Assembly: GCA_037446815.1 (NCBI GenBank)
Contig: JBBIHX010000017.1
Span: forward strand, 1-34,258
Direction of reading: 5' to 3'
Source of the DNA: Caldilineae bacterium
GTDB taxonomy: Bacteria > Chloroflexota > Anaerolineae > DTLA01
DNA: 34,258 nucleotides
In this document: piece after piece, positions 6,874 to 34,258 of the stretch
Numbering within the stretch: position 1 is the first letter of the stretch
Layout: each line of letters opens with the position of its first letter
Notes under the pieces: model-generated
The model's database searches: none
What the model was told of the DNA's origin: nothing
What the model saw: only the letters and a program-made list of their open reading frames with translations
Position numbers and translations under genes: made by a program

Positions 6874-6901
6874 ATTATACGGTTTTGACAGGGGGTGTCA
6901 A
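6874..6901 (-). promoter_or_regulatory. Sigma70-type promoter of the rpmH operon
   Basis: TTGACA-16 bp-TATAAT on the minus strand. Confidence 0.8.
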
Positions 6902-6921
6902 ATCAATTCGCGCCCGCTCAT

Positions 6922-7391
6922 TCGGTTCCAGGGTCTGTTGGTATTTGTCATTGCGAGGGCGCAGAGCGCCCGAAGCAATCTCCCTCACCCCAGCCCTCTC
7001 CCGAAGGGCGAGGGAGCCCTGGCCTTTCCCGTCATTGCGAGGGCGCAGAGCGCCCGANNNNNNNNNNNNNNNNNNNNNNNNNNNNNNNNNNNNNNNNNNN
7101 NNNNNNNNNNNNNNNNNNNNNNNNNNNNNNNNNNNNNNNNNNNNNNNNNNNNNNNNNGAAGGGCGAGGGAGCCCTGGCCTTTCCCGTCATTGCGAGGGCG
7201 CAGAGCGCCCGAAGCAATCTCCCTCACCCCAGCCCTCTCCCGAAGGGCGAGGGAGCCCTGGCCTTTCCCGTCATTGCGAGGGCGCAGAGCGCCCGAGGCA
7301 ATCTCCCGAGCGTGGGGTTGCTTCGCTTCGCTCGCAATGACACGCGGGGAGAGTGCGCCTGCGTTTCACCAACACAAGATGGAACCGAGTC
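6922..7391 (+). mobile_element. Inverted-end-bounded REP-like element (copy E1) containing an 84-bp tandem array
   Basis: Left end TCGGTTCCAGGGTCTGTTGG (6922-6941), right end CCAACACAAGATGGAACCGA (7369-7388); REP-like hairpin cargo between them. Confidence 0.7.
6947..7341 (+). repeat. 84-bp tandem repeat array (GTCATTGCGAG hairpin + CCCTCACCCCAGCCCTCTCCC hairpin); copy number unresolved
   Basis: Unit starts at 6947, 7031, 7186 and 7270 (84-bp period on each side of the gap 7058-7157). Confidence 0.92.
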
Positions 7392-12485: not shown

Positions 12486-12554
12486 AGCGGGGCAGGAATT
12501 CAACCGACATCGCGCACGCGAAATCGCGAGGCATGCGCGTTGCCAATCGCGGAA

Positions 12555-12692
12555 CCTTCTCCCTTCCGGACTGTACCGTCGGCCCCGGCTTTGCACCGGA
12601 TCTGCTTGCGCTCGCGGGCTTGGCCTCGGCAATGAGACCTTACCGCCGATCGGGAATTGGCCTGGCTTGCAGGCCGCACCCTGCCCCGAAGG
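12555..12692 (-). ncRNA. FMN riboswitch (RFN element)
   Basis: Minus strand CCTTCGGGGCAGGGTG...AATTCCCGATCGGCGGTAA...AGCCCGCGAGC...GCAGATCCGGTGCAAAGCCGGGGCCGACGGTACAGTCCGGAAGGGAGAAGG matches RFN consensus blocks. Confidence 0.93.
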
Positions 12693-12716
12693 CTCCTGGA
12701 TATTCAACTTGCGCCG

Positions 12717-23413: not shown

Positions 23414-24064
23414 TCAATCCTTGCTCACCAGGATACGCATGGCAAGGTTCTGCCCAAGGGCAACTGCCGTCTCGCCCACCCGAATCATCATGGGGCCCTC
23501 AAACGGTGCGACGCTTTCCACCACCACCGATGTGCCCGGCCGCAGCCCCAGGTCGCTCAAGTACGTCAGCACGCCGGGTTCCTCCTCCGGCACCTCCAGA
23601 ATCGTTGCCAGGTCGCCGGCAGCCAGCGTGGACAGCGGATGTCCGCCTCGGTGCGCCATCTCGCCCGTGGCGCTTGGAACCAGATGGCCGTGGGGGCAGG
23701 TGTCGGGCTCGCCGAGAAACCGCTCCAGCCGGTCTATAAGGCTGGGGGACGAGACATGCTCCAGATCGCAGGCCGCCTCGTGGGCCTCCTCCCAGGGCAT
23801 GCCCAGCATGTCCACCAGGAAGCGCTCCCATAGGCGATGCCGCCGCAGGATGTTCAGGGCGCGCGCTTCGCCCTCGGCGGTGAGGGTTACGCCCTTGTAT
23901 GGGGCATAGGCCACGAGGCCGTCCCGTTCCAGGCGGCGCACCATCTCGTTGGCGGATACCGACGACACGCCCAGCCGCTCGGCGAGGGCTGGGATGCCGG
24001 CGGGCACGCCGCCTCGCGCCAACTTGTAGATGGCCTCCAGATATTCTTCCACGTTCTGGGACAT
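23414..24064 (-). CDS. DtxR/IdeR/MntR-family metal-dependent repressor with C-terminal FeoA-like domain
   Basis: EEYLEAIY, RRHRLWERFL, HEAACDLEH, CPHGH. Confidence 0.95.
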   Translation of the reverse strand: MSQNVEEYLEAIYKLARGGVPAGIPALAERLGVSSVSANEMVRRLERDGLVAYAPYKGVTLTAEGEARALNILRRHRLWERFLVDMLGMPWEEAHEAACDLEHVSSPSLIDRLERFLGEPDTCPHGHLVPSATGEMAHRGGHPLSTLAAGDLATILEVPEEEPGVLTYLSDLGLRPGTSVVVESVAPFEGPMMIRVGETAVALGQNLAMRILVSKD

Positions 24065-24193: not shown

Positions 24194-24393
24194 ATCCACG
24201 GATAGCACGGATTGACGGGTGAGGCGCGAGATGCTTCGCCTTCGGCTCAGCATGACAGAGCGGGGAGGCTGTGCGCCGTACAGACCAACACAAGATGAAA
24301 CCGACTCCTATAGCCCGGCGGCTTTGGCCCCGCGCGGGAGAGGGCTGGGGTGAGGGGTAACGCGCGACGCACCTCCGAGGTGCGTCGCACGTT
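24194..24393 (+). repeat. Repeat mosaic including the right half of the inverted-end element (E3)
   Basis: AGATGCTTCGCCTTCGGCTCAGCATGAC (identical to 29896-29923), right end CCAACACAAGATGAAACCGA (24285-24304), GGCGGCTTTGGCCCCGCGC, GGGAGAGGGCTGGGGTGAGGG, GCGACGCACCT/AGGTGCGTCGC hairpin. Confidence 0.82.
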
Positions 24394-24475
24394 CTTCGCC
24401 CGCTCGCACAGCGGCGCGCTGCCATGGATCCGGCTCCGGCGGCGTGCGGCATTTTGGCGCGAAAGGGCCAGTCTG

Positions 24476-29296: not shown

Positions 29297-29749
29297 TCAC
29301 CGATGATGCTCGCGCTCCACCTCGGCGATCTTCTCCACGCGCCGATGATGCCGAGGCGAGTCGCTGAACTCGGTTCGCAGCCAGATGTCCACGATGTCCA
29401 GCGCAAGCCCTGGCCCCACCACGCGCCCGCCCAGGCACAGGACGTTGGCGTTGTTGTGCTCGCGGCTCATGCGGGCCGAGTAGGTGTCCAGGCACACCGC
29501 GGCGCGAATCCCGCGGACCTTGTTAGCGGTCATGGCCATCCCCTGGCCCGTGCCGCAGATGAGGATGCCGCGGTCAAACTGGCCGCCCGCCACCGCCTGG
29601 GCCACAGCGCGGGCATAGTCTGGGTAGTCGGTGGACTCGTGGGAATGGGCCCCGAAGTCCTGCACTTCGTGCCCTTGAGCCTCTAGGTGCTGGCGGATGG
29701 CGTCTTTCAGATCCACACCGCCGTGGTCGGCGCCGATTGCGATTTTCAT
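29297..29749 (-). CDS. rpiB: Ribose-5-phosphate isomerase B
   Basis: IGADHGG, DYPDYA, ICGTGQGM, REHNNANVL, RHHRR; start at ATG 29749. Confidence 0.96.
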   Translation of the reverse strand: MKIAIGADHGGVDLKDAIRQHLEAQGHEVQDFGAHSHESTDYPDYARAVAQAVAGGQFDRGILICGTGQGMAMTANKVRGIRAAVCLDTYSARMSREHNNANVLCLGGRVVGPGLALDIVDIWLRTEFSDSPRHHRRVEKIAEVEREHHR

Positions 29750-29779
29750 CGTTCCCCTCCGCGGGTGGGATGCGCCGCC

Positions 29780-29788
29780 ATTATACCA
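29780..29788 (-). promoter_or_regulatory. Extended -10 promoter of the rpiB operon
   Basis: TGGTATAAT on the minus strand about 30 bp before the ATG. Confidence 0.65.
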
Positions 29789-29826
29789 CAGGCGCGCCGC
29801 CCGCGCAGGTGTCGGCCTCCGCGGCT

Positions 29827-29974
29827 TCGGTTCCAAAGTCTGTTGGCATCTACTGTCATTCTGAGCGGCGAAGCCGCGAAGAATCTCGCTGACCGAGATG
29901 CTTCGCCTTCGGCTCAGCATGACAGGACCGGGAGGCAGTGCGCGGGACAGACCAACACAAGATGGAACCGAGTC
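29827..29974 (+). mobile_element. Complete minimal inverted-end-bounded REP-like element (copy E2, about 148 bp)
   Basis: Left end TCGGTTCCAAAGTCTGTTGG (29827-29846), cargo GTCATTCTGAGC...GCTCAGCATGAC (29855-29923), right end CCAACACAAGATGGAACCGA (29952-29971). Confidence 0.75.
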
Positions 29975-30021
29975 CGGGACAGGATTTGGCTTCGTCGTCC
30001 ATCTGGCATTGCTTTGCGCCC

Positions 30022-30106
30022 GTAGCGCGGCGGCTTTAGCCCCGCGCGGGTTTAGCCCCGCGCAAATGGCGAACGTGCGACGCACCTCGCAGGTGCTTCG
30101 CACGTT
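30022..30106 (+). repeat. GTAG-type REP-like repeat followed by the AACGTGCGACGCACCT...AGGTGCTTCGCACGTT hairpin
   Basis: Same modules and order as 24310-24393. Confidence 0.75.
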
Positions 30107-30107
30107 A

Positions 30108-30740
30108 TCAGAGGCCCAGCAGCGGAGCCAGGTCCTCCCAGCGGATGGGGCCCTGACGGACAATCCGAGGCGGGGTTACCGAGAGGTCAATGACCGTAGA
30201 CGCGACGCCACCCGGACACGGCCCGCCATCCAGGATGAGGTCTATCGCGTCCCCCAGCGAGGCTTCCACCTCGTCGGCGGTTACCGCGCTCGGCTGGCCC
30301 GACAGGTTCGCGCTGGTAGTAGCCAGCGGCGCGCCCACGCGCTCAATCAGCGCCAGCGCCACGGGGTGATCGGGGACGCGCACGGCGACGGTGGGCCCGC
30401 CAGCCGTTACGGCATCGGGCACAAGCGCGGACCGCTCCAGCACCATGCTCAAGGCGCCGGGCCAGAACGCGCCCGCCAGTTGCCACGCGGCGGGCGGGAC
30501 ATGCTTGGCAATACGGTTCAAGTCGCGCACGTTGGCGACGAGCACGGGGATAGCCTTCTCGCGGTCGCGGACTTTGGCAATGTACAGGCGATCCACGGCC
30601 TGCTGGTGGAAAACCAGCGCGCCGACGCCGTACACGGTGTCGGTAGGGAACGCCACCAACCCGCCCTCGCGGAGTATCCGCGCCGCCATGGCGAGCGCTT
30701 CATCCCAGTTGTCGGGAGTTATGCGAATCCGCACGCTCAC
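30108..30740 (-). CDS. tsaC: L-threonylcarbamoyladenylate synthase (TsaC/YrdC type)
   Basis: VAFPTDTVYG, K-x-R, FWPGAL, VAVRVPDH, TTSANLSG, STVID. Confidence 0.95.
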   Translation of the reverse strand: MSVRIRITPDNWDEALAMAARILREGGLVAFPTDTVYGVGALVFHQQAVDRLYIAKVRDREKAIPVLVANVRDLNRIAKHVPPAAWQLAGAFWPGALSMVLERSALVPDAVTAGGPTVAVRVPDHPVALALIERVGAPLATTSANLSGQPSAVTADEVEASLGDAIDLILDGGPCPGGVASTVIDLSVTPPRIVRQGPIRWEDLAPLLGL

Positions 30741-33523: not shown

Positions 33524-34042
33524 CTAGGACTTCTTGGCCGGACTCAACACCATCAGAAGACTTCTGCCGTCAACCTGGGGCGGCTGCTCCACGGTAGAGA
33601 TGTCCGCCAACATTTCCGAAACCTTCTGGAGCACTTCCATCCCCAACTCGGGGTGGCTGGCCTCGCGCCCCCGAAACCGTACCCGGACCTTGACCTTCGC
33701 GCCGCTTTCCAGGAAGCGCCGAGCATCGCGCACTTTGTAGGTAACGTCATGGTCGCCGATCTTGGGGCTCAGGCGGATTTCCTTGACATCCACCGTCTTC
33801 TGAGCCTTGCGTGCCTCGCGCTCTTTCTTCGTGCGTTCGTAGAAGAACTTGCCGGCGTTCAGGATGCGGCACACCGGCGGGTCAGCGTTCGGCGCTACTT
33901 CCACCAGGTCCAAATCGCGGTCGTAGGCCATTTGCAGGGCGTCCCGCAGGGACATGATGCCGACTTGCTCGCCGTTTTCGTCAATGACGCGCACCTGGCG
34001 GGCCTGAATCTCTTCGTTGACGCGCTGGGTCCTGCTGCTTAT
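33524..34042 (-). CDS. infC: Translation initiation factor IF3 (ATA start)
   Basis: Frame extends 16 codons beyond the ORF call to ATA (ISSRTQRVNEEIQARQVRVI) with GAGGAG 6 nt upstream; LDLVEVAP, PPVCRI, FRGRE. Confidence 0.95.
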   Translation of the reverse strand: MSSRTQRVNEEIQARQVRVIDENGEQVGIMSLRDALQMAYDRDLDLVEVAPNADPPVCRILNAGKFFYERTKKEREARKAQKTVDVKEIRLSPKIGDHDVTYKVRDARRFLESGAKVKVRVRFRGREASHPELGMEVLQKVSEMLADISTVEQPPQVDGRSLLMVLSPAKKS

Positions 34043-34115: not shown

Positions 34116-34144
34116 AGTATAACATGACTCGCAAAACCCGTCAA
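34116..34144 (-). promoter_or_regulatory. Sigma70-type promoter of infC-rpmI-rplT
   Basis: TTGACG-17 bp-TATACT with extended TG. Confidence 0.8.
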
Positions 34145-34162
34145 ATCTCCGCCCGCAGGGAC

Positions 34163-34258
34163 ACGGTTTCAAAGTCTGTTGGTATTTTGTCATTGCGAGG
34201 GCTCGGAGCGCCCGAAGCAATCTCCGAGGCGTGGGGTTGCTTCGCTTCGCTCGCAACG
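34163..34258 (+). mobile_element. Left part of inverted-end-bounded REP-like element (copy E5), truncated by the window end
   Basis: ACGGTTTCAAAGTCTGTTGG-tatttt-GTCATTGCGAGGGCTCGGAGCGCCCGAAGCAATCT...GTTGCTTCGCTTCGCTCGCAA. Confidence 0.72.

Follow-up and report, generated by a model that had tools for sequence, protein, structure and literature searches.

A hairpin-bearing miniature transposable element, apparently placed by a Mutator-like transposase at a fixed distance upstream of predicted promoters in an Anaerolineae genome

Using genome-wide motif scans, comparisons of flanking DNA and searches of related genomes and metagenomes, our work here identifies a short repeat of an uncultured Anaerolineae bacterium as a MITE (miniature inverted-repeat transposable element) whose copies often sit at a fixed distance upstream of predicted promoters. 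The window we analysed is 34,258 nt long and is the entire contig C17 (JBBIHX010000017.1) of the draft genome of Caldilineae bacterium GCA_037446815.1 (3.19 Mb in 265 contigs, 65.6% G+C; G000 in our labels), with the focal copy lying upstream of rpiB. A precise empty allele, terminal inverted repeats (TIRs), 8-bp target-site duplications (TSDs), the lack of any open reading frame (ORF) and hundreds of copies together establish the element as a MITE, in keeping with the non-autonomous, MITE-like unit proposed in an earlier reading of the window's letters (the sequence-only reading), which overlooked the most important biological property, the constant placement upstream of promoters. We consider it very probable that the MITE is moved in trans by a Mutator-like transposase of the DDE type that places the element ends 15 bp upstream of sigma-A promoters. 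A puzzling repeat would then resolve into a known mechanism, as the MITE of a sigma-A-promoter-seeking Mutator-like transposase.

The family is defined by its ends. Scans with the motif CGGTTYCA-N5-TGTTGG, controlled by the same pattern read backwards, return seven matches in the window as against none in 100 shuffles, 456 exact matches genome-wide as against none for the control, and 749 ends as against 94 when up to two mismatches are allowed; the element is present in roughly 230–330 copies, or about 1.5% of the genome, a density of one copy per 10–14 kb. Among the 456 exact matches the central pentamer is AAGTC in 163 and TCTTG in 151, so that the end-specific central 5 bp described in the sequence-only reading hold throughout the genome, while a third type, AACTG (34 matches), had been overlooked. 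Convergent adjacent ends less than 3 kb apart form 122 pairs, 94 of which combine an AAGTC-class with a TCTTG-class end and none of which joins two ends of the AAGTC class or two of the TCTTG class, bearing out the asymmetric ends around a conserved interior that had been described from the window. The distance from motif to motif is 140–143 nt in 102 of these 122 pairs, with a mode of 142 nt and a modal element size of 150 bp; the interior is therefore far less variable than the “variable cargo” first proposed, even if the two interior types described below do exist. In aligned copies the repeat extends 4 nt outward of the motif as GA[T/C/G]T (GANT-CGGTT...), giving TIRs of 23 bp, GANTCGGTTYCA-N5-TGTTGG, whose ends read ...CCGANTC-3'. 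The true boundary thus lies 4 nt beyond the motif, and the focal element runs from 29824 to 29974 rather than from 29827. The number of copies counted as complete varies with the test: 119 for TSDs, 116 for interior type and 106, with clean flanks, for promoters.

With the boundary set 4 nt outside the motif, an 8-bp TSD is exact in 51 of 119 complete copies and has at most one mismatch in 75, while the other boundary offsets tested give 0–2 exact matches at TSD lengths of 7–9 bp. The sequence-only reading had seen no clear duplication because it set the end 3 nt too far inward and because both full copies in the window happen to lack one (at the focal copy the flanks are CCTCCGCG and CGGGACAG). 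Mobility is further documented by four public metagenome runs that we aligned to a 3.6-kb stretch of another contig with two MITE copies. One contig of run X1 (1033 nt long and about 97% identical) crosses the site of the copy at G000:C2:25698-25847 and omits exactly 158 bp, that is, the 150-bp element and one 8-bp duplicate, with 8 letters that fit both sides; this contig is a precise empty allele. Runs X3 and X4, from more distant strains, also lack the copy. At the orthologous rpiB locus the upstream site is free of the MITE in all four same-genus (sister) species compared (among them G001, G002 and G004 in our labels; all are draft assemblies), where an exact empty site cannot be delimited because the intergenic DNA is too diverged, and the -10 element of the rpiB promoter is kept in all four.

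The distribution of the family is narrow and its footprint on the assembly is large. The four sister species hold 22, 18, 5 and 1 motif matches and 36 other genomes of the class that were searched hold none; among the genomes searched, the MITE is restricted to this genus. Within 200 nt of a MITE copy lie 174 of the 530 contig ends, and the element thus accounts for much of the fragmentation of the assembly. As a side observation, contigs C72 and C73, each of about 12.9 kb, carry MITE ends at equal coordinates offset by 1 with identical flanks, including a promoter immediately 5' of a tRNA gene, and are probably a duplicated or twice-assembled region.

Reading outward from 436 ends, we find that TTGACA begins at offset 19 from the motif, which is 15 from the true end, in 34 cases, TTGAC in 48, and TANNNT at offsets 41–44 from the motif in 166, whereas TGTCAA, which would mark a promoter pointing inward, has no offset peak. 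In 60 of 106 copies the flank matches TTGACA-N16-18-TATAAT at 8 or more of 12 positions, the -35 standing precisely 15 nt from the element end, a distance made up of the 8-bp duplication and 7 further bp; shifting the frame by one nucleotide to either side leaves 24 and 28 copies, a shift of at least 3 nt leaves 0–2, and random genome positions score at 0.26%. When only the -10 is scored, a hexamer that matches TATAAT at 5 or more of 6 positions occurs at offsets 37–40 in 63 of 212 flanks, compared with about 0.3 expected from the 2152 such hexamers of the genome, a test that is free of circularity with the scoring of the -35. No consensus is apparent in the duplicated 8 bp or in the 7 bp that follow. 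The end that faces the promoter is the left inverted repeat (IRL) in 32 copies and the right inverted repeat (IRR) in 23, and copies occur in both orientations relative to the neighbouring gene; one anchored promoter stands directly 5' of a tRNA gene. A 101-bp version of the MITE in three sister species also makes 8-bp duplications, and at about 16 of 40 loci, judged by eye, it keeps the same offset.

Tandem copies show the same 8 bp being used again. At 34 of 53 tandem junctions the spacer is exactly 8 bp, spacers within one array are identical (for example GGCGGCGG twice and TTTGGCGC twice), and where outer flanks were examined the spacer has the same sequence as the outer TSD (TGTAACGG at G000:C103:2978, for example). 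Identical 8-bp spacers are what repeated insertion at one promoter-anchored target predicts. Alternatively, the tandem copies could arise from the chemistry of transposition, through the IR-IR junctions of IS256-type circles or tandem dimers, or from insertion aimed at a resident end, a possibility that bears on the arrays alone and not on the nature of the MITE. Circle junctions in this superfamily do hold 6–10 bp of flanking DNA between the ends (PMC3942029), and spacers of 7 and 9 bp occur, six of each among the 53; however, the identity of the spacers within arrays and their agreement with the outer TSD are as re-use of one 8-bp target predicts, and we regard an origin in transposition chemistry or end-directed insertion as unlikely.

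The likely source of these ends emerged from other members of the class. Between no two paired ends of this draft assembly did we find a transposase, the arrangement that the sequence-only reading had proposed to look for; an autonomous insertion sequence (IS) with the same asymmetric ends does exist in other Anaerolineae. A scan of collection contigs with TCGGTTYCA-N5-TGTTGG gave, among the matches listed, mostly chance hits in unrelated phyla, with about six of 106 loci relevant (L010, L017, L034, L036, L070 and L077). The parent type was found at L017 (L110 is identical DNA): this 1674-bp contig from a metagenome-assembled genome (MAG) of the Anaerolineales holds a complete IS of 1520 bp with IRL GACTCGGTTCCAAAGTGTGTTGG, IRR GACTCGGTTCTACCTTGTGTTGG and a single ORF of 428 aa. 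The protein passes the Pfam model Transposase_mut (PF00872; 35.9 bits, cut-off 21), its nearest NCBIfam models are IS256 (E 4e-11), ISH6 and IS1249, and it bears an N-terminal four-cysteine zinc ribbon; by hhalign its catalytic core is related to IS256 at a probability of 86%, and its N-terminal zinc-ribbon region to seven ISKra4 proteins of the class at 18% (E 1.4e-3). A sequence search of the PDB with the transposase gave nothing at E ≤ 1. The family that had not been recognised from the window is thus assignable, by profile matches, to the Mutator/IS256-like superfamily.

Homologues of this transposase at 59–69% identity, with the same asymmetry of IRL and IRR, were found in 22 of the 401 genomes sampled from the class and in only 2 of 401 in a phylum-wide sample, and its metagenome protein clusters number more than 1755, mostly on contigs of 1.4–1.8 kb, as expected of a repeated IS. 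At the genome loci examined for the parent IS the end that precedes the transposase gene is AAAGTG-like and the far end ATCTTG-like; in metagenome copies the former shows more variation, GATTG being one form, and an exact 8-bp TSD is present in 7 of 53 scorable copies. The asymmetry of the MITE ends corresponds to IRL versus IRR of the parent IS, and the oriented protein-binding or recombination sites once offered as an alternative come down to these two repeats. On sequence grounds the MITE can be described as IRL and IRR, with about 28 nt adjoining the IRR and a REP-like (repetitive extragenic palindromic) hairpin between them. Several other candidates for an autonomous copy or a mobiliser were discarded: the long pairs on C42 (2446 bp) and C178 (1629 bp) and the 4.5-kb contig C205 with inward ends consist of adjacent MITEs and the housekeeping genes that separate them (a kinase-like ORF, a major facilitator superfamily (MFS) transporter and LigA); the DDE_Tnp_1 (IS4/IS701-like) transposase at C20:28131-28622, in the only region of the genome where such an ORF was found (G000:C20:27450-28780, 444 codons open), has no MITE ends nearby; and the canonical IS256 copies of G001 and G002 are not bounded by such ends. 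Those copies apart, models of IS256, its zinc variant (NF048019), ISKra4 and ISLre2 give no candidate in the genus, and true ISKra4 elements, found in 31 of 151 genomes of the class, were not found in it.

The flanks of the autonomous relatives carry predicted promoters too, with a -10-like hexamer at offsets 25–40 in 44 of 96 distinct flanks compared with 10 across the other 48 offsets. This observation bears on a second way of accounting for the fixed position, in which insertion would be random and the association with promoters the work of later selection, either because harmless intergenic insertions survived or because the host uses the element at this exact spot, for instance as a binding site where a class-I activator would sit, or by means of a hairpin shielding the promoter from read-through. 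Some survivorship bias towards intergenic DNA must exist in a compact genome; the element end lies at about -51 and the 23-bp repeat is centred near -62; and each copy has a stable hairpin (z = -5.25), whose fold is the same in two interior types of different sequence. Single-base precision (60 copies at offset 15, 24 and 28 one base off, 0–2 at 3 nt or more) nevertheless goes beyond what survivorship would give, and the adjacency of 1.5-kb autonomous relatives to promoters in unrelated genera indicates that the trait goes with the transposase and not with host use of the MITE. The repeated use of the same 8 bp at 34 of 53 junctions is likewise expected from targeting, and targeting at such a distance is documented for sister families (PMC3942029). 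We therefore hold selection after random insertion to be improbable, and favour placement by the transposase. Separately, we note that in complete ISs from other genera (loci L110-L139 and L191-L270) the -35 of the adjacent promoter lies most often 4–5 nt from the IS end and overlaps the duplication (for example L117, L218, L238 and L267); this differs from the 15 nt seen in this genus by about one helical turn.

The interior of the element is a double hairpin, as the sequence-only reading had noticed. In the focal copy the outer arms (29853-29866/29912-29925) are 93% complementary and the inner arms (29876-29888/29894-29906) 92%, the DNA fold has z = -5.25, and the two MITE ends can themselves pair as a 9-bp and a 6-bp stem around a 5x5 internal loop. 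Two interior types share this architecture and differ in sequence. Type A (GTCATTGCGAG) makes up 95 of the 116 complete copies, and the 89 that fall into the 150-bp class have 88% mean pairwise identity; type B (GTCATTCTGAGC), the type of the focal copy, makes up 19, of which 8 are about 170 bp long. Core matches of type A number 428 inside MITEs and 36 outside; those of type B number 205 inside and 159 outside in this genome, and in the sister species G004 the type-B hairpin occurs more than 100 times without terminal repeats, often in arrays. The type-B hairpin is a free-standing REP-like family, and to describe the element as a carrier of REP hairpins was fair. The G004 arrays (for example C110:7820-8214 and C80:50146-50629) have periods of about 75 and 161 bp.

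A palindrome that also occurs alone and in arrays, between two ends that can pair, could suggest a repeat of the REP or bacterial interspersed mosaic element (BIME) type, spread by a REP-associated tyrosine transposase (RAYT; Y1 HUH), or else a gene for a structured small RNA with a long closing stem. The ends, however, equal the IRL and IRR of an IS with a DDE transposase, copies stand in both orientations relative to the neighbouring gene, and a search for Y1 transposases (RAYT; PF01797) gave no match in this draft genome while its control was positive in 6 of 14 genomes. REP/RAYT movement is not known to produce 8-bp target duplications. At the gathering threshold of Rfam nothing matched the MITE; the only match in the window is an unrelated flavin mononucleotide (FMN) riboswitch (RF00050) at 12550-12697 on the minus strand (92.8 bits, gathering score 66.2). 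An origin as a RAYT-spread repeat or small-RNA gene thus seems to us very improbable.

We suggest that the MITE comprises the two 23-bp terminal repeats of a prokaryotic Mutator-like (IS256-related) IS of about 1.5 kb, in which a REP-like hairpin would have replaced the transposase gene. It would be moved in trans by a DDE transposase of the parent type, the mobilising protein in this genome being presumed from the shared ends, and by analogy with the family the movement would likely proceed by copy-out/paste-in through a circular intermediate, each insertion generating an 8-bp target duplication. The transposase would choose a sigma-A (sigma-70 type) promoter and set the element, in either orientation, with its end 15 bp (the duplication and 7 bp more) upstream of the -35, the promoter pointing away from the element. 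Recognition may come about through contact with RNA polymerase bound at the promoter, the route proposed for TnGBS, or through the -35 DNA being read. Because a location upstream of promoters would seldom break genes, copies could accumulate to the roughly 230–330 present.

Several observations weigh against this explanation. As regards the source, neither protein searches nor family models reveal a parent-type transposase in this genome or its four congeners, all of them drafts, and the MITE may now be immobile here; the assembly holds no contigs shorter than 2 kb, and a contig of collapsed IS copies could thus have been dropped from it. The L017 transposase scores 42.5 bits against NCBIfam transpos_IS256, where the cut-off is 150, reaches no curated family cut-off, and has no match at E ≤ 1 to the ISKra4 and ISLre2 models (NF033572, NF033529), and its placement within the superfamily draws on weak profile matches because the curated cut-offs of all named models failed. 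As regards the target, the promoters are predicted, as consensus matches; 46 of 106 copies have none at the canonical offset; and although an outward ORF start comes after 53 of the 60 promoters, a median of 42 nt beyond the -10, the control for this is weak, since 49% of random positions give the same result. Among the autonomous relatives the -35 offset varies widely (2–18, commonest 4–5) and is not a sharp 15, in flanks many of which come from short and possibly chimeric metagenome contigs (exact TSD in only 7 of 53). Finally, the TSD has three or more mismatches in 32 of 119 copies and is lacking in both full window copies (29824-29974 and 6919-7391).

All five copies reported in the sequence-only reading (1-81, 6922-7391, 24229-24307, 29827-29974 and 34163 to the end) are present in the window, with the boundaries given in Table 1, and the genes on their promoter sides are rpiB, infC, rnpA and a DtxR-family repressor. 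In the interior of the expanded copy (6942-7368) type-A hairpins alternate with a second unit of about 45 nt (CTCACCCCAGCCCTCTCCCGAAGGGCGAGGGAGCC...); this copy spans an assembly gap of 99 N (7059-7157), and its length in the assembly is therefore approximate. Further short GC-rich repeats occupy MITE-bearing intergenic regions at 30020-30100 and 24330-24395, one a palindrome of the type GTGCGACGCACCTC..GAGGTGCGTCGCAC, which is also found inside MITE-like elements of another Anaerolineae MAG (L034, L036), and another made of GGCTTTAGCCCCGCGCGG-like units. In G001 the orthologue of window 29750-30110 (L144, on contig C63) has its intergenic region filled by a different repeat family, with several copies of units around CACGTAGGGCGGCTTTCC(A/G)TAGCCGCC.

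Table 1. MITE copies in the window, their end-motif matches, and neighbouring genes and predicted promoters (window coordinates)
Feature	Position	Strand	End-motif matches (strand)	Details
Partial type-A copy, truncated at contig start	1-81	-	59-77 (-)	IRL (AAGTC) motif 59-77; outer 4 nt 78-81
Predicted rnpA promoter	6874-6901			TGTCAA 6896-6901, ATTATA 6874-6879 (+ strand letters); 17 nt outside left end of 6919-7391 copy
Expanded copy	6919-7391	+	6923-6941 (+), 7369-7387 (-)	IRL variant GGGTC 6919-6941; IRR 7369-7391
DtxR-family repressor gene	23414-24064			Consensus promoter TGTCAA..TATTATA, minus strand, ~80 nt left of 24229-24307 copy
Type-B right half	24229-24307	+	24285-24303 (-)	IRR motif 24285-24303; outer ACTC 24304-24307; left half missing
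rpiB gene	29297-29749	-		
Predicted rpiB promoter	29780-29808	-		
rpiB promoter -10	29780-29785	-		TATAAT; 38 nt from focal MITE end
rpiB promoter -35 (weak)	29803-29808	-		CTGCGC; 15 nt from focal MITE end
Focal copy, type B, 151 bp	29824-29974	+	29828-29846 (+), 29952-29970 (-)	
Focal copy IRL	29824-29846			GCTT-CGGTTCCAAAGTCTGTTGG
Focal copy internal hairpin	29853-29925			
Focal copy IRR	29952-29974			Reverse complement GACT-CGGTTCCATCTTGTGTTGG
infC gene	33524-33994	-		
Predicted promoter facing infC	34116-34144	-		
infC promoter -10	34116-34121	-		TATACT; 38 nt from MITE end
infC promoter -35	34139-34144	-		TTGACG; 15 nt from MITE end
Type-A copy, truncated at contig end	34160-34258	+	34164-34182 (+)	IRL GACA-CGGTTTCAAAGTCTGTTGG 34160-34182

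If our explanation holds, a promoter-seeking habit works for a non-autonomous derivative of 150 bp and is able to drive hundreds of copies in a 3.2-Mb genome. The copies would then serve as natural, base-precise markers of more than 100 likely promoters in an uncultured thermophile-type member of the Anaerolineae, helping annotation without transcript data. More tentatively, and with some doubt on our own part, we raise the possibility that the parent transposases form a further, unnamed Mutator-like lineage that combines an IS256-like core with an N-terminal zinc ribbon of the ISKra4 kind, that acquired or kept sigma-A targeting outside the two published lineages, and whose MITE has tagged a large share of the promoters of this genome. 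Were this so, the offsets of 15 and mostly 4–5 bp, about one helical turn apart, would suggest reading from one face of the helix, with the transpososome sensing either the -35 region or RNA polymerase bound to the promoter, and hairpin copies and arrays at about -51 may have become insulators of host promoters or modifiers of their upstream elements.

Five families of prokaryotic Mutator-like transposases have been defined (p-MULT; Guerillot et al. 2014, PMC3942029). Two of them, TnGBS/ISLre2 (p-MULT 3) and, with members in Chloroflexi, the ISKra4 group (p-MULT 4), insert 13–17 bp upstream of the -35 of sigma-A promoters, with 8–9-bp direct repeats and inverted repeats that have a terminal C; when the two repeats are almost symmetric, the promoter may lie to either side of the element, and contact with the RNA polymerase initiation complex has been proposed as the basis of targeting (PMC3942029). 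Since insertion at this distance is already published for both, the targeting described here is not new in kind, and the mechanism of spread and the choice of target are of the published sort. The MITE resembles these families in its offset (15 bp here, 13–17 there), its target repeats (8 bp here, 8–9 there) and its inverted repeats (23 bp ending in ...GANTC-3' here, 18–39 bp with a terminal C there), and it shares with the ISKra4 group, whose repeats are near-symmetric, the placement of promoters on either side of the element. It differs in a parent transposase that matches the model of neither family at E ≤ 1 and stands closer to IS256 (86%) than to ISKra4 (18%). The published elements of these families are ISs, transposons and ICEs (integrative and conjugative elements), and PMC3942029 makes no mention of a MITE. 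What is new, in a modest but concrete sense, is a non-autonomous form of a promoter-seeking Mutator-like transposon in hundreds of copies, with a parent lineage outside the two described families. That lineage also provides a third sequence set in which to seek the determinant of specificity, for which a conserved Asp-containing motif between domains N1 and N2 has been linked to promoter targeting (PMC3942029, Fig. 8 logo).

With the IS256 family (p-MULT 1) the parent type has in common the DDE Mutator-type core (PF00872), 8–9-bp duplications, a single ORF and a length of about 1.3–1.5 kb, and it departs from that family in falling below the equivalog cut-off (42.5 of 150 bits) and in its N-terminal four-cysteine zinc ribbon. 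Insertion of IS256 proper appeared random (PMC3942029), whereas this lineage is anchored to promoters. Classical MITEs such as the Correia elements, MITEAba12 and MITEPsy (PMC10969869) are likewise short, non-coding, IS-derived and numerous, with TIRs and a TSD; the element described here adds a promoter target at a fixed distance and a REP-like hairpin core. The passages that a term search picked out of that 2024 review of prokaryotic MITEs mention neither a Mutator/IS256-type nor a promoter-anchored MITE, and our literature search found no promoter-anchored bacterial MITE and no MITE of Mutator type. REP and BIME repeats share with it a GC-rich imperfect palindrome, alone and in tandem arrays, in this genome and its sister species, but DDE-type TIRs and 8-bp TSDs bound the whole unit here, and our search found no RAYT. 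The transposase superfamily also includes the eukaryotic Mutator elements and Pack-MULEs, whose non-autonomous derivatives favour the 5' ends of genes (cited in PMC3942029); in contrast to the bacterial MITE, their activity takes place in eukaryotic chromatin, with 9-bp TSDs and no fixed offset in base pairs from a promoter element.

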